Virus genome (UHGV): UHGV-1272094
Strand: one strand, 5' to 3'
DNA length: 19,487 bases
Source: a virus
The notes beneath the pieces are model-generated. The model had not been told where the DNA came from. It saw only the letters and a list, made by a program, of their open reading frames with translations, and made no database searches. This document shows, one piece after another, positions 1-16,623 of the stretch (positions are counted from its first letter, which is position 1; each line of letters begins with the position of its first letter). The translations under genes and the position numbers were made by a program.

Positions 1-1290
1 TGTTACTTCGCTCGTTTTTACTATCGCTGTCGTCACTTGCTCCAGCGAACTGCTCGCTACCTTTCCCGAACGCACAAGCTGATTTAATACTGCCGCCGCA
101 GCACCAGTTGTCGAATCAGCCGCATTCCCGGCACGTTGAGCTAAATCGCCCAATTGCCCGCTGGTTGTCCCCAACTGATTTCCGGTAAGAATAAGAGATT
201 TATTAAATTCGTCCTGCTCCTGAGAGCCTTTATAGTAAGCCAGTCCTAAGACCCCAACGGCTGCTGCGGCCAGGGTAAAAGGATTAATTAATCCCAGCAC
301 ATAAGAACCTACCCCTTTGATCGCCGGGCCAATCCCACCGAACATATCTTTTAGCTGGCCGCCCTGCTGCATTAACACCATAAATGGCGACTGACCAGTG
401 GACAACCCAACAACAATATCCGTCATTTGTGCAGGCAACATGCGCATAGCAAAAGCCGTTTGTTTTGCCGACATTCCGGTTTTGCTTAATTGTGATTGAG
501 TAACCTCAAGCTCACTCCGCATAGCACGAAGTTTTCCAGAAAGCTCCTCATACATTTCAGGAGAAAGCATCCCCTTAGCTTTTGCTTCATTGAGCTGTTT
601 CTGTTGTTCTACCAGACGATTAAAAGCAGTTCCGACAGGATCAAGTTGAGCAATCAGACGTTGCAAAGCAACAACCTGTTCATCATGCGCTTTTGCTGCT
701 TCTCGCTCTGCCTGAGCCTCTCCGGTAAGCTCTCGCCGTGTTTCCTGTATTTTTCGGCTATAATTCTCAAACTGAGAACCATTTATTTTCCCGGATGCAA
801 ACGCAGCATTAAGTTCATCATGCTGTTGTTCAAGATTTCTTAGCGCCGCAGCCAGAGGGTCGATCTTGTCCAGCATTCTTTGAAAGGCCTGAGCCTGCGC
901 TTCCTGCTGGGCGGCAGCAAGTTTTCCGGCCTTCTCGGCTTCTCTCTGCGCTTGCGCAACCCCGCTCAATTCCTCTGTGGTTTCATTAAGTTTACGGACA
1001 AGAAATTCATATTCTTCTTTATCAATAAGCCCTTTATCGAAAAATTTCTTTAATTCAGAATAGCGTCGACCGACAGTATCAATTGCGGCACCAACTGGAT
1101 CAATAGCTGCTTTTAATTTTGCGAGCGCGTTCTTCTCATCTTCTGTTGCCTTAGTCACTTTCCCTGCGCTATTTGCAGCAGTTTCCCCAGCCTGCGTCAT
1201 TTTGACTAATGAGGAGGTCAGATTGTCAGCATTATTTTTCGCTCCAGTGCTATCAATAATTATTGCGAGACGCGAGGTTTGCTCTGCCAT
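1..1290 (-). CDS. Tail tape measure protein, N-terminal 430 codons (3' end beyond window start)
   Basis: Minus-strand ATG at 1288-1290 with AGGAG 9 nt upstream. Reading frame stays open to position 1. Translation [24 protein letters not shown]..., Ala/Gln/Glu-rich coiled-coil, then [36 protein letters not shown], which I recognise as a tape-measure motif. Missing from the ORF track because it is truncated by the window edge. Confidence 0.9.
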
Positions 1291-1307
1291 TTATTAAAAC
1301 TCCTGAC

Positions 1308-1335
1308 AACAAAAAACCCACCGCGAAGTGGGTTT
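1308..1335 (-). terminator. Intrinsic-terminator-like hairpin between the chaperone genes and the tape measure gene
   Basis: Perfect 8-bp stem aaacccac/gtgggttt (1314-1321 and 1328-1335) with 6-nt loop. On the minus strand the stem is followed by TTTTTTGTTG. Confidence 0.4.
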
Positions 1336-1455
1336 CAGGCGACATAATAGTAGATATAGCGATTACGAGGCCACGCAATGCTTTTCTCCAGGAGCATCAT
1401 CGATTTAATTAAAGACACCATCACATCTCTGTAACAGAGTGTACGTAATTAACAA

Positions 1456-1776
1456 CTACACACACTGCTCCTGAAAATACTGGTCATCCAGTGCAAAGAT
1501 CACTGCTTCAAATTCATCGCGCTCAATCAATACCGGATGAGTGGCTAAATATTCATTTATCTCTGTCAGAGATAAAGGCAAAGGCACCCCAGCCATTCCA
1601 GCATAACGTCGGGCACGGGATATTACCGAATAGGCGTACAACAACTCCTTAAGCACCGGGTCTATTTCTGGTTCCGGTATCGGTGGCAACCTGAGTTTTT
1701 CTCGCTTCCATCTTGCCTTTTCCCCCCTTTCTCCCCCGAACTCCGATAACCACCGCTGGGCAGCTATGGCTTTTTT
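1456..1776 (-). CDS. Frameshift extension of the tail assembly chaperone (lambda GT-like C-terminal part)
   Basis: The -1 frame relative to 1764..2225 is open from 1800 down to the stop at 1456-1458 and overlaps the 3' end of the upstream ORF across the slippery heptamer. Predicted fusion is about 256 aa. The ORF-track entry 1456..1689 begins at a TTG and is the tail of this frame. Confidence 0.65.
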   Translation of the reverse strand, partial: KKAIAAQRWLSEFGGERGEKARWKREKLRLPPIPEPEIDPVLKELLYAYSVISRARRYAGMAGVPLPLSLTEINEYLATHPVLIERDEFEAVIFALDDQYFQEQCV

Positions 1777-2225
1777 ATCGTATCCTGCTTCTGCTGCTCT
1801 TTACCCTGGGCGATGCTGGCTGCTTCTGCAAGGATCTGCCAGTACAACTCTGGATTCTGCTTAAGCAGCGCGATCCCTCGTTCTGCCGTATATTCCAGTG
1901 CAACCTCAACACCATTAACCAGTTCACCAACCCCTTTCCAGTCTTTCAGCAGATAACGAGCGGCATTATCAATGAGTAAATCATCAACAGAATCCACCTC
2001 GGAAACCTTTGAAATATCAAACTCCTTCGTTCCGACGTGCAAACTGGCATCCATTTTCTCAATGTGGCGACGGATTAATGCATTACGGGAGCGATACTGA
2101 TCGTTATCGCTGCTTGCCACCAACAGTTTTAACCCGTCTACAGGTTTTAAGTCCTTCATTGGCGTAAACCAGCGTTCTCCACCAATGATAATTTTCTGAT
2201 TAAGAATAAACATCCATAACCTCAT
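1764..2225 (-). CDS. Tail assembly chaperone (lambda G-like), upstream frame of a frameshift pair
   Basis: 153-aa ORF directly upstream of the tape measure gene, ending ...EQQKQDTIKKP*. Stop TAG at 1764-1766. GGGGG 10 nt upstream of ATG 2225. Position and size match the G/GT arrangement of siphoviruses. Confidence 0.7.
   Translation of the reverse strand: MRLWMFILNQKIIIGGERWFTPMKDLKPVDGLKLLVASSDNDQYRSRNALIRRHIEKMDASLHVGTKEFDISKVSEVDSVDDLLIDNAARYLLKDWKGVGELVNGVEVALEYTAERGIALLKQNPELYWQILAEAASIAQGKEQQKQDTIKKP
1770..1776 (-). promoter_or_regulatory. Programmed -1 ribosomal frameshift slippery heptamer A_AAA_AAG
   Basis: mRNA reads ...GAU ACG AUA AAA AAG CCA UAG in the zero frame. A AAA AAG is the same heptamer as the E. 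coli dnaX shift site. After the -1 slip the frame continues KKAIAAQRWLSEF... into the 1456 ORF. Confidence 0.65.
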
Positions 2226-2273
2226 TCAATGCGTCCCCCTGTAGGGCAGTACCACAGGAGGAATAACGGAAAA

Positions 2274-3236
2274 TCAACTAATCGCCTCAGCACTGGCTTT
2301 TGCGATCACGGCAGCCGGGGAATTTTTTTTTCTGGTTATCGTAGGTGCTTCATCTGCTGCGGTAATGCTCAATTGAACCTGGATAATGTCGCTATTACCC
2401 CCATCAGGCCATTCACCTGACACCTGAACCTTCGGGAAACTGAAAGTGTATGCCCCCTCTCCATTCGAAAGCGTGAAGCTGAACGGAACTGTTTCTCCAG
2501 TCAGTGTTTTACTCCAGATTTCCCACGCGGCTTTAGACCATGAAAGCGTCACCGTACCGGACGGTGTAAAAGTAGTCGGAATATTTGCTCCTGCATAAGG
2601 CGAGCCAGTCCCGATACAACGCTGTGTCTGGAGTTTGTTATCGAACTGAATATCAAAACTGTCGATACAAAAACCGTTACCTCCGGCAACACCATTCAGG
2701 CTTACTGCTGAAACCTCCTTAAACGAATAACGTAGCTTTCCTGCACTATCCACAGGTTCGCCTTTGATAAAATTCGTATCATCGGCCTTTGATTCCCAGT
2801 CCAGTCCGGCAAAGGTTACGGTCGCTGTAATATCGCCGTCGTTAGGGATCTGCATTTTCCATGAGCCAACCTGCGCTCCTCTGACGACAGAGGCAATTCC
2901 GACATCGGACGCATAGGTCGCCAGAGAAAATGTTATTCGCTCATTCCCCATTGTCAGAGAATCGCCTGACCATTCCGCGCCGAAACAGGATGCAAGAAAA
3001 TCATCATGTTGACCCCAGCGAAATTTGGTACCAACATCACCGCCGACATCCACAGTGCCAGGCGTCGCCCCCTGAGCCATCCGGGAGCCACCAATCTCAT
3101 TATTTTCGCCTTTATTCTGGGTGGGTTTTACTCCCCAGCTTGTGCGTTTTAATAAACTCCAGTCACCACTTGCTGGCGTAGTGCCTGCAACCGTCTCCCG
3201 GATAAATGCCGAGATAACCTTTGCACCTGAACTCAC
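2274..3236 (-). CDS. Major tail (tube) protein, putative
   Basis: 320-aa ORF between the tail-terminator-like gene and the chaperone pair. GTG start at 3234-3236 with AGGAGG 5 nt upstream. Assignment is by synteny with the lambda U-V-G-T-H order. Confidence 0.65.
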   Translation of the reverse strand: MSSGAKVISAFIRETVAGTTPASGDWSLLKRTSWGVKPTQNKGENNEIGGSRMAQGATPGTVDVGGDVGTKFRWGQHDDFLASCFGAEWSGDSLTMGNERITFSLATYASDVGIASVVRGAQVGSWKMQIPNDGDITATVTFAGLDWESKADDTNFIKGEPVDSAGKLRYSFKEVSAVSLNGVAGGNGFCIDSFDIQFDNKLQTQRCIGTGSPYAGANIPTTFTPSGTVTLSWSKAAWEIWSKTLTGETVPFSFTLSNGEGAYTFSFPKVQVSGEWPDGGNSDIIQVQLSITAADEAPTITRKKNSPAAVIAKASAEAIS

Positions 3237-3262
3237 AGGAGCCTCCTATGTCATTAATTGCG

Positions 3263-3655
3263 CTAGAGCGCGCGATATGGAATTTGAAGATTAAGCTGGA
3301 ACCAGCCATTCTTTTCGCCAACGGCTATTGAGGAAACAGCCTGGTAACTGAGACGATCGTCATCCTGAAACTCAAACAGTTCCCGCAATTTATCGGCTGT
3401 CTCAGTAATGAGTTTTGAACCAGAACCTGCGGGGACAAATAACTGAATAATGATTATCCCCGTGCGATAAACAATCGGCCCCGCGCCAATTTCATTAACT
3501 CCAGCCTGCCCGGGAATATTACTTAACCGCGCCCAGATTAACTTACCGGAAGGATCGAACGTTGGCGCGTTCGGATACAATACGTCTTTTCCATCAATAA
3601 TCGTCTGTGCCGTCATTCTGGAAATAACCGTATTTCTGATTTCAGTAAACGTCAT
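3263..3655 (-). CDS. Tail terminator / tail component protein (lambda U position)
   Basis: 130-aa ORF. Its ATG overlaps the upstream gene stop as ATGA at 3652-3655. Position is immediately upstream of the major tail gene. Confidence 0.55.
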   Translation of the reverse strand: MTFTEIRNTVISRMTAQTIIDGKDVLYPNAPTFDPSGKLIWARLSNIPGQAGVNEIGAGPIVYRTGIIIIQLFVPAGSGSKLITETADKLRELFEFQDDDRLSYQAVSSIAVGEKNGWFQLNLQIPYRAL

Positions 3656-4032
3656 TTGTAAGCCTGTAAAACACCATGAAAAGCGTTGGCATACACGCCA
3701 GTTGGCGCTTGTTGTGAATGACCGTTTTCAAGAGCCTCTGCATAAGGAAGGTTATTCTGGATATAAATAACTCCGTAATTTGCAGCTTTCGAAATAACCC
3801 CGATCCCACGCTGAACAGCAATCGTACCGTTCGGATCCACGTTATCAGATATACCAAAATCGGGATGCTGTAACGACACCAGGTTGTTATTTCTGAAACG
3901 TCCGGTATCAACCGGAGCAGCAATATCAATAGCAGTAAGAATCTGAATAGCGATGTAGCGAATCTTCAGCCCTACATCTTCCTCAATCATCCCGGCAAAT
4001 ATTGACGGTTCTATATCCCATGCCTTTGCCAT
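3652..4032 (-). CDS. Tail completion protein, HK97 gp10-like
   Basis: 126-aa ORF containing ...AAPVDTGRFRNN..., which I recall as characteristic of the HK97 gp10 family. Located in the head-tail joining block. Confidence 0.55.
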   Translation of the reverse strand: MAKAWDIEPSIFAGMIEEDVGLKIRYIAIQILTAIDIAAPVDTGRFRNNNLVSLQHPDFGISDNVDPNGTIAVQRGIGVISKAANYGVIYIQNNLPYAEALENGHSQQAPTGVYANAFHGVLQAYK

Positions 4033-4416
4033 TTACGCTCTCCTTAACTGGATAGAGTAAACTGATGCGGAAGGATCTACACTTGCTGTAATTACCTCGT
4101 ATCGTTGTAACTGCCTTGATACAGGATCATAAATCTCAATAATATGGTCGACAGCTGGTTTATCCGTAACCTCGCATACCAGAGCGGTTAATTTAAGGTC
4201 ACCATGCAAAATATTAATCCCATCAATTCTGCCCAGCTTATAACGTGTCAACACGCCTCGCCCGGTATAGATTGCGGTGGATTCGCCGCCAGTTTCCGTC
4301 ACAGGATCCCAGTGCCGGTGCGTAACGTAAGAACCAGAAAAATCACTCACGGCGTCCGCTAAATCCTCATCAAAAGCAGCGGCAACCTCTGACTGAATCT
4401 CTTCACGAAGCCCCAT
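4033..4416 (-). CDS. Head closure / head-tail joining protein
   Basis: 127-aa ORF. TAATG overlap with the upstream gene at 4416. Position matches the SPP1/HK97-type connector set. Confidence 0.5.
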   Translation of the reverse strand: MGLREEIQSEVAAAFDEDLADAVSDFSGSYVTHRHWDPVTETGGESTAIYTGRGVLTRYKLGRIDGINILHGDLKLTALVCEVTDKPAVDHIIEIYDPVSRQLQRYEVITASVDPSASVYSIQLRRA

Positions 4417-4811
4417 TATCCCCCCCTCACAACCCTGACTTGTGAGCGACTAAGTCCGTACGGTTTCAGCAGTGCTATCGCAAGCTGTAAATCGGGTTCA
4501 AGCAATGCAGTGCTGTTTGCTGGCAACTCAGAAAATGATTTCGATACACTGACCCCGTCAGCCGACACGGCTTTACTGATAACAACGCCAGAATCATTTT
4601 TCTGCTGAAACAACTTACCGAATGAGGCAATTCTGGCTGCATATGCTCCCGCAAGTTTTACCTCTTCCGGAATACGGGATGGGTTAATTTTCAGGTTGAA
4701 GCCATTAAGCCAGGCATTAGCCATTAAAACAGCTTTATTTTTAGCGTTCTCACTCGTCCAGGCGTTCCCAAACGCATTATCAACGTCATCACAGGTCACG
4801 TAAGTGATCAT
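4416..4811 (-). CDS. Head-tail connector (gp6-like adaptor) protein
   Basis: 131-aa ORF, first gene of the connector block downstream of the capsid gene. ATG at 4809-4811. Confidence 0.5.
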   Translation of the reverse strand: MITYVTCDDVDNAFGNAWTSENAKNKAVLMANAWLNGFNLKINPSRIPEEVKLAGAYAARIASFGKLFQQKNDSGVVISKAVSADGVSVSKSFSELPANSTALLEPDLQLAIALLKPYGLSRSQVRVVRGG

Positions 4812-4814
4812 GTG

Positions 4815-4991
4815 TTACTCCTGAGTTTTCCAGCCCATAGCCTTCCAGTTGTCAACTTCATCAGGATGAACATTAGCGATAGTTGGTGCGCCGGGAAACA
4901 TCTGATAATCGGTCACCATAACCACTAACTCAATTTGCGTTTTTTGTGCGGCTTCACGCTGTGCTCTTTGCTCTTTAGTTAATCCGGCCAT
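4815..4991 (-). CDS. Small hypothetical protein (58 aa) between capsid and connector genes
   Basis: Not in the ORF track. ATG at 4989-4991, stop TAA at 4815-4817, no internal stops. Translation MAGLTKEQRAQREAAQKTQIELVVMVTDYQMFPGAPTIANVHPDEVDNWKAMGWKTQE. GGGGGG lies 3 nt upstream of the ATG. Confidence 0.4.
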   Translation of the reverse strand: MAGLTKEQRAQREAAQKTQIELVVMVTDYQMFPGAPTIANVHPDEVDNWKAMGWKTQE

Positions 4992-5000
4992 ATGCCCCCC

Positions 5001-5023
5001 ATTAAAAATGGGGCCGAAGCCCC
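5001..5023 (-). terminator. Terminator/attenuator hairpin just downstream of the major capsid gene
   Basis: Minus-strand GGGGC-UUCG-GCCCC stem-loop (plus 5010-5023) followed by AUUUUUAA. Lies 11 nt after the capsid stop at 5034. Confidence 0.5.
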
Positions 5024-5033
5024 GTTTGAATGT

Positions 5034-6173
5034 TTAACCAAGAATCAGACAACCATGTGCCGGCTTCACTGATGAAACACCCCATGCCAGTCCAACTTCA
5101 TAGCGCACCTGGCGATACTGACGATACAGTGCAATCTGGAACGTAATCCCTGAAATCGGGTCCGTAACATTCATTACATCATCAGCATTATCGCCACCTT
5201 CCGGCATTGCCGGAGTACGGGATGCCAGCAGAAACGCGTTGCGATCAAACGCCATATTTGCCGTAAAGGCCCCAACAACTGTGATGGCAGTATCATCGGC
5301 CAGATCCTGACGCAGTCCGGGCGCTGCAAGAGTAATCAGATTGCTGGTCGCTGCTGCCACAACATACTGATTCGGATTACCAGCGAACGTAACAATCTGA
5401 CCTGCAGAAATACTCCCCGAACCAGTATCAATGGAAATAAGAACATCGCCTTCTTTTTTCTCTCCATTCACGAGATAACCAGTTGCAGCAACCTTTGGCG
5501 CTCGTTTCACACCTGCCGAACTGTGAATATTGAATCCCTCCAGACGCCCCAACACGCCCTCACGCAGTAGCTGTTCAGTGCCGGATTCATTCACTTTAAA
5601 CAATACAGACTGTTTTCCGCGCAAATTAGCAATGGCAGTGGAGCCAAGCACCATCTGCAGATCGGTTGTCGGTGCGCCGTTATCCTCCAGAACCTGACGA
5701 GCCAGAGCAGCATCAGAAAGATCATCTTTAACACCAAACGGCGTTGTCCCTGCGGTTCCCACGGCGCGGGAAGCACCGAAATACAACGCACCAAGATCAG
5801 CCTCAACCTCGTTTGCAAGGGCGCGAAAAGCCTGCTTGAACTGATCAGCCAGAATGGTGTTGTAAGTCCCTGAAGGGCCAAGAGCCAGTTGTTCTTCACC
5901 ATTCCATTTAACCGGTGCCATTTTGGATTTAGTAATTTTTACATCAACAGTGCCAATATTTTGATCACCGGTATTCGGAGCTGACGGCCCCGGTACGATA
6001 TCTTCGGTTTTCGCCTCAGGCGCAACTGGCGCGGTTACCGTCTGATCTTTTGCTGCGGCGTCAGCTTTTACGTTTTTTGCTACCGCAGGGATAAAACCTA
6101 CCTGCTCACGGGATACAACATCCAGGGCGGTATAAATAGTCGGGATCAACCCGGTCAGGGTATTTCCAGCCAT
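5034..6173 (-). CDS. Major capsid protein (P22 coat-like by recollection)
   Basis: ATG at 6171-6173 with AAGGA upstream, 379 aa, MAGNTLTGLIPTIYTALDVVSREQ... The longer ORF-track start at 6266 is a TTG. Position after scaffold; C-terminal region resembles P22 gp5-type coat proteins from memory. Confidence 0.75.
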   Translation of the reverse strand: MAGNTLTGLIPTIYTALDVVSREQVGFIPAVAKNVKADAAAKDQTVTAPVAPEAKTEDIVPGPSAPNTGDQNIGTVDVKITKSKMAPVKWNGEEQLALGPSGTYNTILADQFKQAFRALANEVEADLGALYFGASRAVGTAGTTPFGVKDDLSDAALARQVLEDNGAPTTDLQMVLGSTAIANLRGKQSVLFKVNESGTEQLLREGVLGRLEGFNIHSSAGVKRAPKVAATGYLVNGEKKEGDVLISIDTGSGSISAGQIVTFAGNPNQYVVAAATSNLITLAAPGLRQDLADDTAITVVGAFTANMAFDRNAFLLASRTPAMPEGGDNADDVMNVTDPISGITFQIALYRQYRQVRYEVGLAWGVSSVKPAHGCLILG

Positions 6174-6271
6174 AATTAAATATTCCTTAAAAATTTGCGT
6201 AATTGTGAATAGATGGAGTAATGAGCTATCCAGCCCTGACACCAGCTCCCATCCGGAAGCTGACAAATGTG

Positions 6272-7036
6272 TTAATCAACGATTGTGATACCGTCTTTCA
6301 ATGCGTTTTGCTTACCTGCAACATCCAGTGCATCAAAAGCAGAGCGTTTCATCGTTTTCTGACCAATATCATGCTGTGTCGGACGGGAGCCGCCGCCATT
6401 GTTGCCACTGGCTTTCAGGATGTAGTCTTTCTGAGGGTAATTTTCGACAAGGAACTCCAGCGCCTCATCAAACTGCGCCAGTTCGCCAGGCTTCGCGCGG
6501 GAATAAATTTTGTTGCCGGAAGCGTCATAAGCAACGATCTTCCCTTCTTCCACTTTGAATGCCTGCCCGAAGCGGGCTTGTAATAAATCTGCCGGGATCG
6601 CAATTTTATCGGCAATATATTTTGAACCCGCAAAACTACCGCCAATCATAGAATCGTAAAGCTGCGTCTCCAGCATCTGAGAGCGTTGCTTTTCTTCATC
6701 TAATTGCTGCTGAAAATTTTTCGTAATTTCTGCCTTAACCTGGTCAACCTGTCCCGCATCGATCAGCTTTTTCTGGTCGATTTTTAACAGCATTTCCAGT
6801 GCCTCGATCGCCTTCTTCGGGTCTTCGATAGCGGCAAACTTAGCCAGTTTTTCCTCTGCAGCTTCTTTAGCCAGGCGATGATTTTTTGCCTCGCCATTAA
6901 GCTCTGTAATTTTTTTTATCGCCAGCGGTGCATCGAAGCCGATTTCTTTACCATCGTCGTGCACATAAACTGGCAGGCCAGCAGTATCAATTTCTGCGTA
7001 TTGTTTTCCGTTAATCTCGACCGTTTTCAGTTTCAT
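6272..7036 (-). CDS. Scaffolding protein, putative
   Basis: ATG at 7034-7036 (MKLKTVEINGKQYAEID...), 254 aa, charged helical region (...EAAEEKLAKFAAIEDPKKAIEALEMLLKIDQKKLIDAG...). Located between the MuF-like gene and the capsid gene. The ORF-track GTG extension to 7108 runs through the upstream hairpin. Confidence 0.6.
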   Translation of the reverse strand: MKLKTVEINGKQYAEIDTAGLPVYVHDDGKEIGFDAPLAIKKITELNGEAKNHRLAKEAAEEKLAKFAAIEDPKKAIEALEMLLKIDQKKLIDAGQVDQVKAEITKNFQQQLDEEKQRSQMLETQLYDSMIGGSFAGSKYIADKIAIPADLLQARFGQAFKVEEGKIVAYDASGNKIYSRAKPGELAQFDEALEFLVENYPQKDYILKASGNNGGGSRPTQHDIGQKTMKRSAFDALDVAGKQNALKDGITIVD

Positions 7037-7096
7037 ATTAGTACCTGGTTTAAGTCTTCCGACAGTTACGCTGCTCACCATCCGGATCGCAGCAAT

Positions 7097-7121
7097 AAAA
7101 AAGGCCACCCGAAGGTAGCCT
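7097..7121 (-). terminator. Terminator-like hairpin upstream of the scaffold gene
   Basis: Stem aggccacc/ggtagcct (7102-7109 and 7114-7121) with one mismatch and a cgaa loop. On the minus strand it is followed by TTTTTTATT. Confidence 0.3.
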
Positions 7122-7140
7122 GTTGTAATAAATGATTTAT

Positions 7141-8256: not shown

Positions 8257-9643
8257 TGATTTCCATCAACATTACACTCTGATTTTTTAATTCATCGATC
8301 ACATCCTCTGGACGGGAATCCTGATCGATAAATTTCAACGCCTGCAACACCCGAACCGCATCAATCTGACGTATATCACCGCCCTGACGCAATGACTGAA
8401 CAGCCAGCGCGGAGGATGAGTCAAACACCTGGGCAGATACATCCAGTTCAGTGCGCACATCCACATTGCCACCGCAACTCTCTCCGCTCCATTCCGCCAT
8501 TATCTGGAGAATATTATCGAGGGCATCTTCGAGGGAGTTCGCCATTGTATAAAGCGGCGAGTGTTCCTGCATCCGCTCTTCATTAGTCTGATCAACAGAT
8601 TTGGTGGATGTATTTTCAGCCCGCAGAAGTTTAGCGCCGGCATGACGCATCTGATTTTCCAGCTTCTCAAGTGATGTTTCGCCAGATTCTATCGCTGCGC
8701 CACTATGTTCAACATATTCGAGGCCATTTTTTGTTCTGTCCTCAAAAATCGTAGCCGTGGATGCACCAACCGTCAGTTCTTCATTCCTGTCCAGCCCGTA
8801 GGCCACCAGCAATGGAACGCGGGCAACATGAAGAATATTGTCCTGCTCGCTCTGGCTTTGCCAGTGCTTGATATTCAGCAAGCCAAGATTAAGCAATGGC
8901 GGTGTACCACGCATAAACCCTGTTTTCTTCGTATACAGTGTTACCAGAGGAATATCATCACGGCTGGTATTCCATGACTCATGAAGCATCCAGACAGATT
9001 CGCCATTAGTACCTTCGCTGCGTCGATAAATTTCTACTCGACGGGGCATAATATGGCGGATCTGCTCCACCTTCTTCTGCCCGAAATCATCACCATCAAT
9101 AATGATGACCTCTTTTATACGCAAATCAGTGAGAACAACTTTCCCTTTTTCAACTTTCGATTTCCATCCAATAACCTGGCGTGGATTCAGCATCGTAACG
9201 TACGGGCGACCACCGGCCGCGTTTTCATCGGCTTTTGTCCGAATCTCGTTCATATCCGTTCGTGGATAGTCCACCAGCGCATGTGCCACACCATACTGAA
9301 ATGCGAGACTGAAAAATTGCTGCGCCCACACATCCAGTCGGCTCCCCTCCATGTCGATATTTTCTGCATATTCCCTGATTTTTTCCGGCGTTTCCTCACT
9401 CAATACTGTCGGCTCTGCAAATATGCGCCCAATATTTTGTTTGATGCTTTCTTCATACACAGGAAGTAACGTAGCCACAGACAGGCGTTTTTTATAAGCG
9501 TCTTCATCTTCATTAGGCCATTTGGGGAGATAATTTTCCCCCTGCCTGCGCATTTCAAGCGTACCGCCCATCAATGCGTCGTTAATATCCCACGCCTCCA
9601 GCATATCGTTATAGTCGAGGTTGGGTGTTGATATATCAGCCAT
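8237..9643 (-). CDS. Portal protein
   Basis: 468-aa ORF starting 2 nt after the terL stop (ATG 9641-9643, MADISTPNLDYNDMLEAWD...). Size and position are those of a portal gene. Confidence 0.75.
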   Translation of the reverse strand: MADISTPNLDYNDMLEAWDINDALMGGTLEMRRQGENYLPKWPNEDEDAYKKRLSVATLLPVYEESIKQNIGRIFAEPTVLSEETPEKIREYAENIDMEGSRLDVWAQQFFSLAFQYGVAHALVDYPRTDMNEIRTKADENAAGGRPYVTMLNPRQVIGWKSKVEKGKVVLTDLRIKEVIIIDGDDFGQKKVEQIRHIMPRRVEIYRRSEGTNGESVWMLHESWNTSRDDIPLVTLYTKKTGFMRGTPPLLNLGLLNIKHWQSQSEQDNILHVARVPLLVAYGLDRNEELTVGASTATIFEDRTKNGLEYVEHSGAAIESGETSLEKLENQMRHAGAKLLRAENTSTKSVDQTNEERMQEHSPLYTMANSLEDALDNILQIMAEWSGESCGGNVDVRTELDVSAQVFDSSSALAVQSLRQGGDIRQIDAVRVLQALKFIDQDSRPEDVIDELKNQSVMLMEINDANRE

Positions 9644-9645
9644 AA

Positions 9646-10947
9646 TTAAATCCGAAGTGATGTGACTCTTCCGGTCGGTTTGACAATAGGGAATTGCTTA
9701 ACGATGAAATAACCTCCGGCATCATTCGGGTGATCATTGCCAGATTTTTTATCAGGCTCCCCCTTATCATCCCAGACCTGTTGCTCCAGAGATTCGGCAT
9801 ATACCGGACAACGCTTCACATTAACTTTATAGCGACGCTCACCATTGGCATTGCAGAACATTGCATTCATTGAGTTAACGCGATCTTTTACTGGCGGGTT
9901 CGAGCTGTTCACCACAACGTTAAAACCTGCCTGCTTAAGCTGGGCTATATCCGTCGTACTTGCGTTACTTGATTTTCTGGAATCTCCGGAAGCATCTGGA
10001 TAAATATAAATCTCCCTCACTTTCCGGTAATCATGCCCGTCATACAGCCAGAAGCGTTCTTTAATGAGGCGGATCATATCCGGCGTATCGTAGGCATTGA
10101 TGATTTCAGTTACCGCACATGGAAGCCCCAAACGCAGCACATGGACGATTCCCGCCATCTTTCCAACGTTAAAATCCATCCCAATATAAATCGGCTCCCC
10201 TGGCTGCTCCACTTCTTCGCAATTATTCAGTTTCCGGTCAAACTGATGGTAAACAGTACCACTTGTCAGGTTAGTAAACCGTCCTAGAAGATAGGCTTTA
10301 ATCAGCTCTGGAGGGTATGATTCAAGAAGTGAAGGAATGTAATCTGCTGGCAGGTTCTTTTCATTATCGAAAGTAGATGCCTGCACCAGACCATACAGTG
10401 AGGCCAGCTCTGTTTTTTCACGCACGGCTTTAACAAACTGCTCGTAGACAAATTTGAATCCTTCCGGCGTGGTTGTAACGTCAATACCGTTGCGAAGTCC
10501 ATCAATCTTATAACGCATACGCGCAATTATCTTGCGCCACGCCGTTCTGGCTTTTTCCTTCGGCAAAATGTCCAGTTCATCCACCAGCGCATTACCAATT
10601 TTGAAACCGACGATCGTTTGTGGCTTCTCCATCGATCTGCAGATAGTGGTTCCCCGATACTGGCGTCCGTAATAAAAGTGAACCTCTTTATTTCCCTCAT
10701 TAATTTTTACGTTCAATCCCCAGTCAGCAGCAACTTCTTCCACTGTAGGGTAAAAAATATCGCGAATTTGGGGATACGTTGGCGCAAAATATCCCTGATT
10801 TATACCTGGATGCTCCCAAATCCCCTTGCATATGCCGCCACACCCAACCCATGTTTTGCCCGAGCCAAAACCAGCAATATAGGCTTTAAATTTATGGGGC
10901 ATTGAAAGAAATCGCGCCTGAGGCACATTAAGCGTCGGAGAGATCAT
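9646..10947 (-). CDS. Terminase large subunit
   Basis: Walker A motif in ...KAYIAGFGSGKTWVGCGG... Preferred ATG at 10945-10947 with AAGGAG 8 nt upstream, 433 aa. Overlaps the terS stop by 20 nt. Confidence 0.9.
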   Translation of the reverse strand: MISPTLNVPQARFLSMPHKFKAYIAGFGSGKTWVGCGGICKGIWEHPGINQGYFAPTYPQIRDIFYPTVEEVAADWGLNVKINEGNKEVHFYYGRQYRGTTICRSMEKPQTIVGFKIGNALVDELDILPKEKARTAWRKIIARMRYKIDGLRNGIDVTTTPEGFKFVYEQFVKAVREKTELASLYGLVQASTFDNEKNLPADYIPSLLESYPPELIKAYLLGRFTNLTSGTVYHQFDRKLNNCEEVEQPGEPIYIGMDFNVGKMAGIVHVLRLGLPCAVTEIINAYDTPDMIRLIKERFWLYDGHDYRKVREIYIYPDASGDSRKSSNASTTDIAQLKQAGFNVVVNSSNPPVKDRVNSMNAMFCNANGERRYKVNVKRCPVYAESLEQQVWDDKGEPDKKSGNDHPNDAGGYFIVKQFPIVKPTGRVTSLRI

Positions 10948-12022
10948 CTTCATCACTCCTTAATCTGGCATCAACCACATTAATATTGATCGCCACAGGC
11001 TGGGGATGTTCATTATCCTCCACCGTTTCGATCTCTTTGCGCAGCTTCTGGTTCTCTATTCTGCGCCGTTCAATTTCCAGTTCCTGTAGCCGCTTATCTG
11101 CACATAATGCCCCGCCAGCAGAAAGCAAACGCAACAATTCACGCCGGGCGGCAGCCTTATCCTCCAGCAGGATCTCAACACCGTATTTTCCGAGCTTTGA
11201 CCCTGCATATAATTGCCGCGCATCCCCATCAAGCAGTGTGGTATCAGCCATATAAAGCTGTCCTGTTCCCTCACCGCAGCACTTCGGGCAATCAGGATTG
11301 GGTATGGCGTTATCAACAAAGCCGAGGCCTCCATATTCCGGCTCGGGTTTACCATCTCTGGAGGCCTGTGCCGCAGCCTTATCGAATTCTGCAATATCAC
11401 GCCACTGGTAGAGATGATTCTCGCCCCAGCAATAACGGCAGTTAACACGGCGAAATTGTGCCAACTGATTGGGGTCGGCCTGGACAATGGCCATCAACTG
11501 GCTCACCAGTAAATCCAGGTCTGCGGTATAGCGTTTCTGGTACTGATTGCGGAAGTAGCTGATAGCACGATAAACCCTGGCATTTCTAAGCATACGGCTG
11601 GCGTTGCTGTTAGCTGTCGCACCTTGCCCCTCATAACCAGCCAGTCGGTATGCCTCTGTCGGCTTTTTCCCCTGAGCAACCAACATGGCGAATTTTGCCT
11701 GCTGGTCAGAAATACCGAATTCATCGGGGCAGAACGAAATTTCTTCCGTGTCCCCCTCAATCAGGAGTGCATCGGATACAGCCTTTTTTTTCTGAGATTT
11801 TCCGTTCTGCCTTTGCGCAGTCTGCGCAGTTTTTTTTCGCGCACTTTTTTGCGCAGTTTTGCGCATTTCTTTCTGCGCATTTTTCGGAGTTTTTTTGATG
11901 TAACGACGGGCTGTTGCGTAGTTCAGTCCCCTTGCTTCACACCATGCCACCGGAGATATACCGGAGCGGGTGTATTCAGCAATATACTCCTGCTGCAACG
12001 CCCCCCAGTCCGGTCTGCTCAT
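10928..12022 (-). CDS. Terminase small subunit, unusually long (364 aa) with extra domains
   Basis: Central segment ...QQAKFAMLVAQGKKPTEAYRLAGYEGQGATANSNASRMLRNARVYRAI... matches the conserved terS core as I recall it. N-terminal HTH-like region, Lys-rich linker, and C-terminal Cys-rich segments (CRYCW...CPKCCGEG) plus coiled coil. ATG 12020-12022 with AGGA upstream. Confidence 0.8.
   Translation of the reverse strand: MSRPDWGALQQEYIAEYTRSGISPVAWCEARGLNYATARRYIKKTPKNAQKEMRKTAQKSARKKTAQTAQRQNGKSQKKKAVSDALLIEGDTEEISFCPDEFGISDQQAKFAMLVAQGKKPTEAYRLAGYEGQGATANSNASRMLRNARVYRAISYFRNQYQKRYTADLDLLVSQLMAIVQADPNQLAQFRRVNCRYCWGENHLYQWRDIAEFDKAAAQASRDGKPEPEYGGLGFVDNAIPNPDCPKCCGEGTGQLYMADTTLLDGDARQLYAGSKLGKYGVEILLEDKAAARRELLRLLSAGGALCADKRLQELEIERRRIENQKLRKEIETVEDNEHPQPVAININVVDARLRSDEDDLSDA
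11814..11879. repeat. Array of six palindromic TGCGCA hexamers (one CGCGCA variant) separated by T-tracts, inside terS
   Basis: Copies start at 11814, 11823, 11838 (variant), 11850, 11860 and 11874, spaced 9-15 bp apart and each followed by T runs. The array encodes the Lys-rich linker of terS. Confidence 0.8.
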
Positions 12023-12025
12023 CAG

Positions 12026-12277
12026 TTAGTCCTGATTTTTATCCACCCTGAGTAGTTCGCGCAGAGCAAAGGCATCCCCTTTTCTGGCAAGCTTAAACAA
12101 TGCCGCTCGTAACTCGGCTTCACCTTTCGCTCTGCCCTTACGGATGGCCGCATAAAAATCTGTCATTGCTTCCCGATTTTCTTTCAGTCGGTTCAGATCA
12201 ACATCCAGAACGTCAGCGATTTGTTGTGCAGTCATCCGGCACGCTGCCAGAGACTCGACTTTCGAATACGGAATCAT
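12026..12277 (-). CDS. Small HTH-like protein of unknown function upstream of terS
   Basis: 83-aa ORF MIPYSKVESLAACRMTAQQIADVLDVDLNRLKENREAMTDFYAAIRKGRAKGEAEL... Stop is 3 nt before the terS ATG. Its 5' end overlaps the 3' end of the GT-like gene. Confidence 0.5.
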   Translation of the reverse strand: MIPYSKVESLAACRMTAQQIADVLDVDLNRLKENREAMTDFYAAIRKGRAKGEAELRAALFKLARKGDAFALRELLRVDKNQD

Positions 12278-13169
12278 TTGTCACCCCCATTGATATGCAG
12301 GGTGTCTTCTTCCTGTATTTTTCGTGAAGGATTTTTACTGCAGCGTTGTTCCAGGTGACCTGATGGTGAATGCGTTTATGGCTGGCACCCATCAGTGAGA
12401 TTTTTACGCACGACGGCGAATACATGACGGAGTAAAAACTTTTAACGTAGGTTCCGGAATCCAGATACAGCTCGGTCATTCCGCCGCTGTTTTTCTGCGT
12501 CTGTTTCTGCCCTAACTGGACAGCACCGATCGTCATAAACAATTCACCACAGCGACCGAGATTCGTGTACGTATTCACATCCTCGTTAATGCGCCCCATG
12601 AATGAGAACGGTCGATCAACCGAACAGATAAAGCTGTTCATTGCCTTGCGTTTCACCCACGAAGCATGGCCGCCATTGTCACCAAGAAAATCCCCGCCCT
12701 GCGACATAGCGATGGAAAGCGCGGGTATTGATTCGTAATACGCCAGCATTTCAGAAAGGATCGCATCCAGTTTCCTTATCGGGAAATAGGCCTGGTCATA
12801 GTTGCGATCCACCCGAAACTGGAACTCGTGATAATCATCATCGAGCTGAATGAAGTATTTACACCCGACCAGTTTTGCCAGGTCGAAACAGGCATTACGG
12901 GCGTAAAAAATTGAGCGGCGATCACCAAAATTATCGGCTTCGTCAAAACGACTGGCAATATCGGCTTTGGAAAATACCAGCACCTGTTCACCAAATTCAG
13001 CCATGTACTGATGCCGTGTCTTATCTTCATCATCAACAACGATAAAAATTTTCCCGGTATAGCCAGCACGACGCAACGTCCGGTAAGTCAGAACTTTGTC
13101 CGGTCGCCCGTGAGTCAGAATAAAGGCGCAAAAATCATCACGCATATTCCTCCTCCTCCTCCCCGCCAT
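12213..13169 (-). CDS. GT-A fold glycosyltransferase-like protein
   Basis: N-terminus AFILTHGRPDKVLTYRTLRRAGYTGKIFIVVDDED resembles the first strand/helix/strand of GT-A (GT2-like) enzymes. A DxD-type motif follows at ...YFIQLDDDYHE... Alternative ATG at 13145 gives 310 aa, with GGAGGAGGAGG just upstream. Confidence 0.55.
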   Translation of the reverse strand: MAGRRRRNMRDDFCAFILTHGRPDKVLTYRTLRRAGYTGKIFIVVDDEDKTRHQYMAEFGEQVLVFSKADIASRFDEADNFGDRRSIFYARNACFDLAKLVGCKYFIQLDDDYHEFQFRVDRNYDQAYFPIRKLDAILSEMLAYYESIPALSIAMSQGGDFLGDNGGHASWVKRKAMNSFICSVDRPFSFMGRINEDVNTYTNLGRCGELFMTIGAVQLGQKQTQKNSGGMTELYLDSGTYVKSFYSVMYSPSCVKISLMGASHKRIHHQVTWNNAAVKILHEKYRKKTPCISMGVTNDSVFESRVSGSVPDDCTTNR

Positions 13170-13932
13170 GCATGATCTCCACCATGCGCTGCGTCATTCG
13201 GACAAATCCATTTTCAATAGCCTGCTGATAATCAATGATCACCAGCGCCGACTCCTCGAAAAGGCACTGAATTTCAGCGGGGGCATGAGCGTAATAGTCC
13301 GCAATTCTGCTGAAATTAAACACTGTGTGACGTTCTGCCGCACACAGGAGGAATTTCTCAATATCAGGATCAAGGGACGCCGAACGTATCCGGCTGATCA
13401 GCTCCTGAGTTTTCGTATCGTCGTACAGTTCACTGATATCCGGTTTACCGCCCGACGGCTCATAAACAGGCGTATCAATTTTCGTCGTATACGGCTCCTC
13501 CTCATTTCCTGTACCGGGCAAAACATCCGTCAACAGTTCATCAATTTCTGTCGGGATGAAGCCTGTCAGGGAGACATCAAAATCAGCATTGATTAGGTCC
13601 GACAGCTCCATCCGCAACAGATCTTCATCCCAGCCAGCATTCATCGGCAGGCGATTATCTGCCAGGCGGTACGCCTTTTTCTGCTCATCCGTCAGGCCAG
13701 ACAGAACAATGACCGGAACAGAATCCATTTTGAGCATTTCAGCCGCCATAACACGACCGTGACCCGCAATAATTTCGCCCTTTTCGTCAATCAGCACCGG
13801 ATTAGTCCAGCCGAATTGCTTAATACTTTCTACCAGTTGTGCCACCTGCTCAGGGCTGTGCGTCCTGGCGTTGTGCGCATACGGTGACAATTCTTGTAAT
13901 GGGCGATAGACTATCTTTAATTTCTCGCTCAT
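13138..13932 (-). CDS. ParB-like nuclease domain (ParB/Srx fold) protein
   Basis: MSEKLKIVYRPLQELSPYAHNARTHSPEQVAQLVESIKQFGWTNPVLIDEKGEIIAGHGRVMAA... is a typical ParB N-terminal domain with the GxGR box. Acidic C-terminal tail GGEEEEEYA. ATG at 13930-13932. Confidence 0.8.
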   Translation of the reverse strand: MSEKLKIVYRPLQELSPYAHNARTHSPEQVAQLVESIKQFGWTNPVLIDEKGEIIAGHGRVMAAEMLKMDSVPVIVLSGLTDEQKKAYRLADNRLPMNAGWDEDLLRMELSDLINADFDVSLTGFIPTEIDELLTDVLPGTGNEEEPYTTKIDTPVYEPSGGKPDISELYDDTKTQELISRIRSASLDPDIEKFLLCAAERHTVFNFSRIADYYAHAPAEIQCLFEESALVIIDYQQAIENGFVRMTQRMVEIMHGGEEEEEYA

Positions 13933-13954
13933 ACAGCCTTGCTTTATGAATAAA

Positions 13955-13983
13955 ACGCACCCCAGCAGCCAGTGCTACTGGGG
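13955..13983 (-). terminator. Weak terminator-like hairpin downstream of trkG
   Basis: Stem ccccag/ctgggg (13960-13965 and 13978-13983) with an inner agc/gct helix. On the minus strand a UUUUAUU tract follows after a 4-nt spacer. Confidence 0.3.
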
Positions 13984-14069
13984 ACGGAGGGGTTGCTGGT
14001 AAAGTTAGGTATTGGATCAATGAGTGAGTCAACATAATATTAAACTCACAATTATAAATCAGCCATATA

Positions 14070-15545
14070 TTAGGAGCGCCAAAAAAAACCTGAAAACAAT
14101 ATAATAACAGGATAAATTTCAAGGCGACCAAGAATCATAGCTATGCACATTAAACATTTTGCAATGTCATTAAGCACTCCGAATGACGATGCAGTAGCCC
14201 CAAAACCTAATCCCATATTATTAATACATGCAGCCACTGTTGCAAATGATGTAAGAAAATCATATCCCATACCATTTAACACCAGTATAAAAAACACCGT
14301 GAAGAGAGTATAAAGAAAAAAGAAACTCCATACAGACCTCATTACACGATCTGTAACTATCTTCCCTCCTACATTTACACTCAACAACGCTCTGGGATGA
14401 GAAAGCTGATTTATCTCGTGTTTGCTTTGTTTGAAAAGTATAAGAAATCGAAGTGACTTAATTCCACCACAAGTTGAACCTATACATCCCCCAAAGAAAC
14501 TTGACAACAGCAAAAACACTATCGTGTGCGTGGGCCAACTTGCATAATCCTGCGTAGCTAAACCATTATCAGTGAGCATGGAGCTGGCAAGAAAAAACGA
14601 ATGAATAAAACTTCCATGCAAGTCATACATACCTATATGCCAGACCTGGAAAGAGGTAACAATGATCACCCCTAAGGCTATTAACAGAAAGAAACGAAGT
14701 TCAATATCTCTGATTAAAGGTTTTATCGTTTTCCTGCTAATAACAATATACCAAAGAGTGAAGTTGAAAGCCGATAGCAGGGAAAAAGAACGAGCCACCA
14801 GCTCAACCAAATAGTTATTAAAATATCCGATACTCTCGCTATGAGTTGAGAAACCACCAAGCGAAACTGTGGAAATCCCGTGACAAATAGCATCAAACAA
14901 AGGCATTCCTGCAAGTCTATAACAGACAATACAAGCAATACCTAATAAAGAATAAGTTATCCACAGTGTCCGTGACGTATCGGCCAGGCGGGGAGTGAGT
15001 TTGTCATCCTTAAATGGCCCCGGCATTTCTGACTGATAAAGCTTTGCACCACCAATACCCAATAATGGCAATACAGCAACCGCCAGAACAATAACTCCTA
15101 AACCACCTATAAAATTTAACTGTGACCGATAGTACAAATATGCCCGAGGTAATGAACTAACATCATCAATTACAGTTGCTCCTGTTGTTGTTATTCCAGA
15201 AACCCCTTCAAACAGAGCATCAATGAACGTTAAATTAAGTTCTGAGTCAATCCATAAAGGGAATGCACTAATAACAGAAAACAAAATCCAAAACATTACA
15301 ATTATAATAAACCCATCACGGGTACGTAATTGAATGCCAGATTTCTTAGTTGTATACCACGCTCCGCCACCAATGCAAAAAAATATAACGAAAGTTATAA
15401 AGAAAACGAACAGGCTTTTTTCTTTATAAAACAATGCTACAACCATTGGTGGCAACATTGAAAGACTATAGAGCCAAACCAGGAACCCACACATATGAGT
15501 AACAACTCTTACATGAGATGTATTCATATCTAAATATTCTTTCAA
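14070..15545 (-). CDS. trkG: TrkH/TrkG-family K+ uptake membrane protein (prophage cargo)
   Basis: Polytopic membrane protein with TrkH-family motifs (...FEGVSGITTTGATV..., GGxGG-type loops). Matches my recollection of E. coli TrkG, which is encoded in the Rac prophage. TTG start at 15545 has AAGGTGG 6 nt upstream; the ATG at 15527 gives 485 aa (MNTSHVRVV...). The gene is visibly AT-rich compared with its neighbours. Confidence 0.85.
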   Translation of the reverse strand: MKEYLDMNTSHVRVVTHMCGFLVWLYSLSMLPPMVVALFYKEKSLFVFFITFVIFFCIGGGAWYTTKKSGIQLRTRDGFIIIVMFWILFSVISAFPLWIDSELNLTFIDALFEGVSGITTTGATVIDDVSSLPRAYLYYRSQLNFIGGLGVIVLAVAVLPLLGIGGAKLYQSEMPGPFKDDKLTPRLADTSRTLWITYSLLGIACIVCYRLAGMPLFDAICHGISTVSLGGFSTHSESIGYFNNYLVELVARSFSLLSAFNFTLWYIVISRKTIKPLIRDIELRFFLLIALGVIIVTSFQVWHIGMYDLHGSFIHSFFLASSMLTDNGLATQDYASWPTHTIVFLLLSSFFGGCIGSTCGGIKSLRFLILFKQSKHEINQLSHPRALLSVNVGGKIVTDRVMRSVWSFFFLYTLFTVFFILVLNGMGYDFLTSFATVAACINNMGLGFGATASSFGVLNDIAKCLMCIAMILGRLEIYPVIILFSGFFWRS

Positions 15546-15664
15546 TTATAACCACCTTGCTGCAATATTATGATTATACTGTATAAAATTTAACTCCTCT
15601 TAGATCTTACTTCACTGTTCCTTATGAAACAATCATCAAAATGAATCATATTGTAGTTAAGATT

Positions 15665-16129: not shown

Positions 16130-16623
16130 TGCTGACCCCACAAACAGATTTCACGCTCAATCTCACGACGAGTCATGAGACCTTTCCATTGCTTACCGCC
16201 AGCATATGTCCAGCGACGTAGCTGATCACATGCGCCTTTGATATCGCCCTGGTTTATTTTGCGAAGAAGCGTCGATGTTCTGAAATTGCCAGCACCCACG
16301 TTGTAAACGAATGAGTAAAGAGCGCCGCGCGTTGTTTCCGGTATATCGACTTTGATGTACGGGTTAATTTGTCTGGCGACCGTGGCAAGGTCTTTATTCA
16401 AGAGTGTTTTGCATTCTGCTTTGGTATACGTTTTACCGAGCATGATGTCTTTTCCTGTATGCCCGTGACATACAGTCCATACACCAACAATATCTTTGTA
16501 TGGTATGTAGCTGACACCTTCCAGACCATCGTTACCACTTGGGCCAGTGATTAACACTGATGCTATAGCAATTGCTCCGCCACCAATAGCAGCAGCAACG
16601 ACTTTTCGTAATGATGGAGGCAT
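16126..16623 (-). CDS. R: SAR endolysin (lysozyme, phage P21 R-like)
   Basis: N-terminal signal-anchor-release segment [30 protein letters not shown]..., then a T4-lysozyme-like core. Closely resembles P21 R as I remember it. TAATG overlap with the holin stop at 16623. Confidence 0.85.

Follow-up and report, generated by a model that had tools for sequence, protein, structure and literature searches.

Full-sized relatives of Rac, a prophage carried by Escherichia coli K-12, have been described, among them the Rac-SA53/LT-II prophages (Jobling 2016) and Sp10 and CP-933R of O157:H7, of which the O157 elements are reported to be transmissible (PMC5917428; PMC4632033). The existence of full-size Rac-like prophages and the defectiveness of K-12 Rac are already known, and the results here leave the understanding of Rac unchanged in principle. 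Rac-SA53, Sp10 and CP-933R resemble the element analyzed here in being ttcA-integrated lambdoid prophages with Rac-type early genes, the likeness of Sp10 and CP-933R being drawn from published descriptions only. Rac-SA53 departs from it in sharing only a 0.7-kb terS patch (88%) with the 14-kb late region, and it therefore carries a different head and tail module.

The DNA analyzed (the window, 19,487 nucleotides) is read from the minus strand throughout, with phage gene order running from position 19487 down to 1. Its gene content, taken from the list of open reading frames, Pfam and PHROGs matches and the RefSeq annotation of strain CI5, identifies it as the apparent late region of an undeleted, full-length form of the common E. 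coli Rac prophage, with lysis, trkG, head and tail genes. Only part of the prophage falls within the window, and genes beyond its edges were read from CI5 and other relatives. CI5 has five differences from the window over positions 1–19399 (~19.4 kb), and it is in CI5 rather than in the window that the positional and early-region hallmarks of Rac are seen: insertion between ttcA and uspF (the same site as K-12 Rac), intR and xisR, and a recE-recT-kilR-sieB early region. Membership by DNA is seen in the window itself, where 2,431 bp match K-12 at 99.67% and another 1,760 bp do so at 99.94%. The late region as we read it would comprise the Q side, a lysis cassette, trkG as cargo, a ParB-glycosyltransferase pair, headful-type packaging, a P22-coat-type head and lambda-like siphovirus tail genes; we give a probability of about 0.88 to the explanation as a whole, in which this is the late region of full-length Rac and K-12 Rac is a copy that decayed through three deletions.

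The features that follow are all on the minus strand. The potassium transporter gene trkG (14070–15527) is a low-GC (about 38–39%) cargo gene with 99.7% identity to K-12 trkG, and just 3′ of it is a terminator-like hairpin (13960–13983; a 10-bp stem with seven G-C pairs and a T-run) recognized by pattern match only. Beyond the ParB-glycosyltransferase pair (see below) there is a 69-aa open reading frame similar to part of a small-terminase profile (12026–12235; phrog_309, 1e-17), followed by the terminase small subunit terS (10928–12022; Pfam Terminase_2, 1.2e-8) and large subunit terL (9646–10947; Terminase_6N, 3.5e-32, and Terminase_6C, 8e-11), a T4-type large terminase from which headful-type packaging is predicted. 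The portal (8237–9643; DUF4055, 7e-45) and a MuF-like minor head protein (7141–8253; Phage_Mu_F) precede a DUF6651 protein (6272–7036; 2e-61) that is a putative scaffold by gene position only, and the major capsid protein of the P22 coat family (5034–6173; P22_CoatProtein, 1.2e-12, and RefSeq annotation). All six of these packaging and head genes, from terS to the capsid gene, are open and full-length, their Pfam matches exceed the curated cut-offs, and relative to ON470595 there are no stops or indels. A conserved phage open reading frame of 58 aa with no assigned function (4815–4991; phrog_1514, 3.5e-43) is followed by a block of four connector genes (3263–4811; PHROGs 179, 169, 161 and 493, with E-values of 1e-28 to 1e-55), coding for head-tail adaptor Ad1 (4416–4811), head closure Hc1 (4033–4416), tail completion/Neck1 (3652–4032) and the tail terminator (3263–3655).

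The tail genes follow the lambda-like siphovirus order of tail terminator, tube, chaperone with a predicted −1 frameshift, and tape measure. The tail tube protein (2274–3236; Phage_tube_2, 9e-32) is followed by ydaY (1764–2225), which matches a tail assembly chaperone profile (phrog_313, 1e-37) and aligns with K-12 YdaY; its possible starts are at 2225, 2213 or 2159, and RefSeq gives a K-12-like 119-aa version from a TTG at 2123. A slippery heptamer, A AAA AAG, lies in the correct phase at 1776–1770, after which the −1 frame is open for 104 codons as a predicted extension (1456–1776; phrog_1189, 1.5e-36) corresponding to T in a G/GT pair. K-12 has kept the slippery site (1425968–1425974). The lambda G/GT tail assembly chaperone is reportedly made with a programmed −1 frameshift, and the gene here is like it in lying between tail tube and tape measure and in its in-phase heptamer near the 3′ end with a −1 extension; unlike it, the window gene is not detectably related in sequence to lambda G or T, and its frameshift is predicted from sequence. 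The tape measure gene runs off the window at position 1, with codons 1–430 of 1077 present (1–1290), as judged from the 3,234-nt tape measure gene of CI5 whose start is at window 1290.

All of the expected head, connector and tail functions are thus present with full-length profile matches, there are no frameshifts or stops, and pN/pS is 0.21 over 20 genes in comparison with a 98.4% identical relative. Because the structural gene set is complete, open and under purifying selection, the prophage is a reasonable candidate for one that still makes virions, which is plausible at roughly even odds. Purifying selection is, however, said to be found in defective prophages too. An opposing reading, that the prophage is complete-looking but cryptic, either non-inducible or giving no infectious particles and vertically maintained, has chances only a little short of even. 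The head module is present as a single copy in all 901 genomes carrying it, with identities mostly of 95–100%; single copies everywhere and divergence in the 1–2% range are as compatible with prolonged vertical inheritance as with active spread. Many strains have independent partial deletions or IS insertions, the replication and Q regions of CI5 are separated by ~8 kb of cargo coding for transporters and regulators, and the phage collection searched has no virion-derived genome of this element, the matching 'phage' records being only prophages called in silico or entries that include host flanks. Against crypticity stand the open reading frames and low pN/pS of all 20 genes tested, the complete morphogenetic set with its predicted programmed frameshift site, and the CI5 integrase, excisionase, Q-like gene, holin, lysozyme and Rz, all annotated as intact.

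Only two segments of K-12 Rac (MG1655, NC_000913 1411899–1434958) match the window. One is a 2,431-bp island (window 13679–16109; K-12 1423200–1425630, 99.67%) on which lie an Rz gene that lacks 20 nt at its start (with Rz1), trkG and a 5′ portion of the ParB-like gene. The other is a 1,760-bp island (window 356–2115; K-12 1425629–1427388, 99.94%) on which lie truncated ydaY, the frameshift extension and the tape measure gene as far as nt 935. The two islands adjoin at 1425629/30 in K-12 and are 11,563 bp apart in the window. The two elements are thus alike in site (ttcA, in near-identical carriers of the window element) and, at 99.7–99.9%, in trkG, truncated Rz, ynaK, ydaY and 5′ tmpR/ynaA; they differ in that K-12 lacks window 2116–13678, everything to the left of 356 as far as lom, and everything to the right of 16109 as far as ydaW, and has an IS5 in lom. 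These near-identical flanks, together with the full series of genes from the ParB-like gene to the 5′ tape measure gene, bear out the proposal of the initial annotation that the window is an intact counterpart of what K-12 lost, and the K-12 order it gave (trkG, ynaK, ydaY, ynaA/tmpR) is correct.

Very probably, K-12 Rac descends from the full-length element and decayed through three independent illegitimate-recombination deletions, each with 0–2 nt of junction microhomology. Full-length relatives CI5, ON470595 and ON032529 supply both parents of each junction, and base-level alignments of junctions A, B and C have clean parental switches with overlaps of 2, 0 and 2 nt. Deletion A corresponds to 11,563 bp of the window (2116–13678; K-12 junction 1425629/1425630, with a 2-nt AA microhomology); it fused codon 85 of the ParB-like gene to ydaY at its 5′ end, a point 0.8 kb upstream of the tape measure gene. 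Deletion B joined tape measure nt 935 to lom without microhomology (near breakpoint at window 355/356; K-12 junction 1427388/1427389), a step of about 8.4 kb; its far end in lom is beyond the window, and the stretch missing from K-12 measures 8,427 bp in CI5 against 8,351 bp in ON032529. Deletion C, an event upstream of trkG that the initial annotation did not foresee, joined ydaW to Rz codon 7 (window 16109/16110; K-12 junction 1423200/1423201) with the loss of 8.2 kb, 8,198 bp in ON470595, a relative that has the K-12 racR-ydaS-ydaT-ydaU-ydaV region and an intact ydaW. With the further insertion of IS5 into lom, a phage of roughly 50 kb would have become a 23-kb remnant, with trkG on a 2.4-kb island and truncated ydaY and tmpR on one of 1.76 kb; we assign no order to A, B and C. 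The open reading frames at the breakpoints are truncated in K-12, which shows the polarity of the change. In K-12, YnaK is ParB residues 1–85 plus two frameshifted residues, YdaY opens with 'MSR', translated from a different frame of ParB-derived DNA, and then has the chaperone sequence from 'SSDND' on, and YnaA is identical to tape measure residues 1–311 and ends in 31 residues that lom DNA contributes. Of 5,426 complete genomes, 348 have junction A, 335 junction B and 338 junction C, and the carriers listed are all K-12 or laboratory strains. At least 80% of the window is present in 681 genomes and at least 80% of the head module in 715, always at one copy per genome.

The remnant in E. coli B is like that of K-12 in its site, its trkG and its ParB-like 5′ fragment, and like the window in keeping internal fragments of the same head module, 141 bp of the MuF gene at 100% identity in BL21 (7203–7343) and 1,372 bp at 99.6% in REL606. 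In both strains the junction differs from that of K-12, with the ParB-like gene at window 13702, 23 nt from the K-12 endpoint, joined to the MuF gene at 7343. The B lineage therefore lost the module independently, decaying from the same ancestor, and neither remnant is derivable from the other. Because there is no head-gene remnant in K-12 itself, the identity of its lost 11.56 kb is drawn from the flanks and the B-strain remnant, and we infer that it was essentially the sequence seen in the window. It is highly improbable that the K-12 ancestor instead had some other structural module and that its flanks came to match through lambdoid mosaic recombination and not through deletion. In favor of this, Rac-type prophages have a mosaic make-up, CI5 and K-12 differ in their immunity and replication region, terS has diverged more than any other gene (94%) and has a patch common to Rac-SA53 and an Actinobacillus phage, and the structural module of Rac-SA53 is unrelated; however, the K-12 breakpoints are within open reading frames rather than at gene boundaries and leave truncated, frame-broken genes, the junctions have 0–2 nt of microhomology without homologous flanks, and the B strains keep pieces of this same head module at the same locus.

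The original proposal of one deletion with its ends inside the ParB-glycosyltransferase pair and midway along the tape measure gene, and by implication with ydaY as a glycosyltransferase remnant, correctly placed one endpoint in the ParB-like gene (window 13678/13679) and had the mid-gene truncation of the K-12 tape measure gene in its favor, but can be dismissed as next to impossible on the alignment and base-level junctions, since the ParB-side deletion ends at 2115/2116, the 1,760 bp between the two junctions are contiguous in K-12, and the tape measure gene, intact over its 5′ 935 nt, is cut by the separate deletion that joins 355/356 to lom. The homology to the trkG flanks and tmpR on which it depended is real, and only the distal endpoint differs, a result it had itself named as counting against it. 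Its implied derivation of ynaK and ydaY from the ParB-glycosyltransferase pair stands for ynaK, which represents the 5′ third of the ParB-like gene; for ydaY, a glycosyltransferase origin is rejected by the phrog_313 match and the position between tail tube and tape measure; no glycosyltransferase sequence is left in K-12.

Three deletions instead of one are a useful correction and no new kind of biology. Together with IS5, they explain, exactly and to the base, how K-12 came by the shrunken form of its best-known cryptic prophage, with trkG left on a small island. They also correct gene identities that have spread from the K-12 annotation into thousands of genomes. One example is ydaY, which in K-12 is a 5′-truncated tail assembly chaperone gene with a start codon borrowed from ParB-derived DNA, and a second is the 'intergenic' DNA before ynaA, which is predicted to code for the frameshift extension. 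In a third, intact ParB-like genes are called 'ynaK pseudogenes' in RefSeq because the truncated K-12 protein is the reference.

Among the side observations, the one of most interest is that the ParB-glycosyltransferase pair is conserved yet has no dioxygenase with it. The intact ParB/Srx-fold protein (13138–13932, minus strand; 264 aa, open) matches ParB_N (PF02195; 28.9 bits against a cut-off of 26.3) and phrog_620 (1.5e-90 over its full length), aligns with YnaK, has a GxxR-type motif, 'AGHGR', at residues 56–60 (a sequence motif only), and is ~41% identical over its full length to the ParB partners encoded by phages c5, phi jlb1 and HHTV-2. Its neighbor (12213–13145, minus strand) is a GT-A glycosyltransferase of the TET/JBP-associated family with a DDD motif (TAGT, PF20691, 6e-35, 121.5 bits against a cut-off of 27.5; phrog_842, 1.4e-103). 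The cassette stands first in the packaging operon of E. coli Rac, of Lactobacillus phages and of a haloarchaeal virus, and is co-conserved among them with ~40% identity for both partners. In its translational coupling of a ParB/Srx-fold protein to a PF20691 GT-A glycosyltransferase beside the terminase genes it resembles ParB-partnered phage DNA-modification enzymes, for which there are descriptions of ParB-dependent T-dioxygenases (PMC13229309) and TET-associated GT-A glycosyltransferases (Pyle et al. 2024 preprint, 10.1101/2023.12.21.572611). It differs in that neither the window nor the CI5 prophage as annotated encodes a linked TET/JBP dioxygenase, hydroxymethylase or other source of hydroxymethyl-pyrimidine, and nor does Lactobacillus phage c5 (complete genome, 31.8 kb), which has the same pair; the acceptor normally used, 5hmC or 5hmU, is therefore not supplied. 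A speculative and rather unlikely explanation is that the cassette directs ParB-dependent glycosylation of DNA (or glycosylation linked to packaging) without a hydroxymethyl-pyrimidine precursor, and that it was destroyed both by deletion A in K-12 and by the independent deletion in E. coli B. If so, the standard laboratory strains of E. coli would amount to natural knockouts of the cassette.

All of the long open reading frames are on the minus strand, so that phage order runs from 19487 to 1, and the gene content given for 1–15545 in the initial annotation is correct as judged by ORFs and Pfam and PHROG profiles. The end of a Q-like gene comes first, followed by two TolA-C-domain ORFs, holin, lysozyme and Rz genes, and then trkG (14070–15527), which has a GC content of ~38–39% against roughly 47–50% in its surroundings. 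Next are the genes for a ParB/Srx-fold protein of 264 aa (13138–13932) and a GT-A glycosyltransferase (Pfam PF20691; 12213–13145), and then in order (Pfam/PHROGs) a 69-aa ORF, TerS, TerL, portal (DUF4055), MuF-like, DUF6651 and P22-type coat, a 58-aa ORF, Ad1, Hc1, Neck1/tail completion and tail terminator; the last are the tail tube, the tail assembly chaperone and codons 1–430 of the tape measure gene, which leaves the window. Between trkG and the ParB-like gene there is a strong terminator-like hairpin (13960–13983, minus strand) with a 10-bp stem, seven G-C pairs and a T-run; this hairpin and the low GC of trkG fit the idea of a self-contained piece of cargo that was inserted in the late operon.

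BLAST comparison with the Rac remnant of E. coli K-12 (MG1655) gave exactly two matches. Window 13679–16109 corresponds to K-12 1423200–1425630 (99.67% identity) and window 356–2115 to 1425629–1427388 (99.94%); these abut in K-12, and window 2116–13678 (11,563 bp, deletion A) is therefore missing there. At the base level the junction is GAGCAGAA joined to GCAGCG, and the parents overlap by 2 nt (AA). Proximally, the deletion breaks the ParB-like gene in codon 85, and K-12 YnaK consists of ParB residues 1–85 (with one substitution), two frameshifted residues and a stop. Distally, it reaches into the 5′ end of ydaY, stopping 825 nt short of the tape measure start. The initial annotation had proposed a single deletion from within the ParB/GT pair to the middle of the tape measure gene, and the alignment that it suggested as a check does not bear this out: the endpoint in the ParB-like gene stands, the distal end lies in ydaY instead, and the tape measure gene was truncated by a second event that joined it to lom.

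After that second event (deletion B), K-12 retains nt 1–935 of the tape measure gene, and the sequence switches to lom at K-12 1427388/89 (window 355/356) with zero microhomology. The missing segment is 8,427 bp by comparison with the near-identical element of strain CI5, or 8,351 bp with ON032529, a full-length relative, and covers the remaining tape measure sequence, the tail tip genes and a 5′ portion of lom; in K-12, lom is also interrupted by IS5. A third loss (deletion C) is upstream of trkG, where K-12 homology ends at window 16109, 20 nt into Rz. With the prophage ON470595 as parent, which has the racR-ydaS-ydaT-ydaU-ydaV region in common with K-12, 8,198 bp are missing from inside ydaW to Rz with a junction overlap of 2 nt, and the losses include cargo, a Q-like gene, two tRNAs, holin and lysozyme. 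With these three events mapped, the 23-kb K-12 Rac is what three clean deletions and an IS5 insertion have left of a phage of roughly 50 kb, with trkG stranded on a 2,431-bp island and ydaY′/tmpR on one of 1,760 bp.

The truncated and frame-broken ORFs are on the K-12 side, and the window ParB-like protein is full length by comparison with homologues as distant as those of Lactobacillus and haloarchaeal viruses; K-12 thus shows the derived condition. Junction sequences A, B and C are present in 348, 335 and 338 complete genomes, and among the matches listed all carriers are K-12 or laboratory strains. The E. coli B strains have different remnants. In BL21, window 13702 in the ParB-like gene is fused to position 7343 in MuF, the former being 23 nt away from where the K-12 deletion ends; the head module is reduced to a 141-bp fragment (100% identical) in BL21 and to 1,372 bp (99.6%) in REL606. 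As judged from these junctions, decay in E. coli B is independent of that in K-12, with neither remnant derivable from the other. We note a palindrome, AGGCGGTACGCCT (13664–13676, 5-bp stem), 2 nt away from the endpoint in K-12 (13678/13679), with the E. coli B endpoint at 13701/13702; this region could be a deletion hotspot, or the proximity a coincidence.

K-12 Rac has been described as a mosaic, defective lambdoid prophage that has lost its structural genes, with trkG and recE as conserved Rac genes (PMC5700373), and full-sized Rac-like prophages have already been reported (PMC5917428; PMC4632033). The late module of Rac-SA53 differs from that of the window. Literature searches for a nucleotide-resolution map of the deletions in K-12 Rac returned general statements only (PMC5700373), and no account of the base-level map, of what ydaY encodes or of independent decay in B strains was found in the searchable literature; these are refinements of known biology and not a new kind of feature.

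The ydaY gene is a tail assembly chaperone gene, matching the phrog_313 profile (1e-37) and located between the tail tube and tape measure genes. It contains the heptamer A AAA AAG at window 1776–1770 in the correct phase, after which the -1 frame is open for 104 codons and matches phrog_1189 (1.5e-36); the predicted product of frameshifting would be a G/GT-type fusion of roughly 222 aa. Profile, position and in-phase slippery site together rule out a glycosyltransferase remnant. K-12 YdaY starts with 'MSR' encoded by ParB-derived DNA in another frame and then follows the window protein from 'SSDND...', and the slippery site and extension are kept in K-12 within the stretch from ydaY to ynaA, which carries an intergenic annotation there. 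This DNA is the -1 frame 'T' extension (window 1456–1776, minus strand; K-12 1425968–1426288). RefSeq annotation is biased toward the K-12 reference. The intact 264-aa ParB-like gene is called 'ynaK, incomplete, missing C-terminus', with the label covering exactly the part retained in K-12 (window 13675–13932; 28675–28932 in CI5 locus L002), and ydaY is called as a 119-aa ORF starting at TTG that mirrors the K-12 chimeric truncated protein (window 1764–2123; CI5 L002 16764–17123).

The window is common E. coli DNA, with at least 80% of it present in 681 of 5,426 complete genomes and many of these ~100% identical over 1–19400. CI5 has five differences across 19.4 kb. Its element is between ttcA and uspF and has intR, xisR, recE, recT, kilR and sieB, placing it at the Rac site with a Rac early region; downstream of its intact tape measure gene (1,077 aa) are M-, L-, K-, I- and J-type tail tip genes, lom, stf and tfa. 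Taken by itself, the head module occurs in 901 genomes, one copy in each (≥99% identity in 338 and 95–99% in 560), and other strains have further independent partial deletions and IS insertions.

Such a prophage may be able to make particles, as was suggested initially. Every expected morphogenetic function is present with a full-length profile match, and 20 genes compared with a 98.4% identical relative lack stops or indels, except for one in-frame 3-nt indel in ParB. The overall pN/pS for these genes is 0.21, a value that reflects past constraint only and is not proof of present function. Against activity, or neutral, are the single copy everywhere with core-genome-like divergence, and the frequent decay in the species. 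Matches in phage collections, the ON470xxx 'vB_EcoS' records and Salmonella phage SPF_0923 (98.4–98.7% identical to the window over 14 kb), were rejected as virion evidence because they are predicted prophages that carry neighbouring host genes (dbpA and ttcA; uspF, ompN and nifJ); the ON470xxx set is from a study of prophages in clinical isolates. ON032529 (SPF_0923; 98.7% identical), deposited as a complete phage genome, spans Rz, the late genes and then sitABCD, uspF, ompN and nifJ host DNA, and resembles a piece of chromosome or prophage, or possibly DNA packaged in situ, more than a phage genome.

The ParB-like and PF20691 genes (12213–13932, minus strand) share an 8-nt overlap and lie immediately before terS, and Lactobacillus phages c5 and phi jlb1 and haloarchaeal virus HHTV-2 have a co-linear counterpart of the pair ahead of their terminase genes (ParB ~41% identical over its full length; GT 39–44%). 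ParB-like proteins activate phage thymidine dioxygenases (PMC13229309). No dioxygenase or hydroxymethylase is encoded in the window, the CI5 prophage or the complete 31.8-kb c5 genome, and the Pfam name 'TET-associated' is thus unfit for this subgroup; a ParB-partnered glycosyltransferase working without a hydroxymethyl precursor is a possibility. A search for literature linking this GT annotation with ParB-like proteins found nothing, and a report of anti-restriction by injected phage proteins that names ParB and glycosyltransferases (PMC12373910) has no bearing on the pair. K-12 and B are natural knockouts for such a ParB-partnered enzyme.

The window's last 95 nt (19393–19487) are a perfect inverted copy of 17942–18036, in the 5′ part of a TolA-C-domain ORF, which may reflect an artefact at the contig end or an inversion in this region; beyond ~19403 the window is unmatched in complete genomes among the matches listed. 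The two TolA C-terminal-domain ORFs (RefSeq; 17090–17485 and 17636–18064, minus strand) are small, paralogous, upstream of the holin gene and have lipoprotein-like N-termini, and may be cargo interfering with colicins or phages that depend on Tol. An Rfam match to the STnc100 sRNA (18175–18361, minus strand; 86.6 bits, gathering score 47) is located between the Q-like gene and the lysis cassette.
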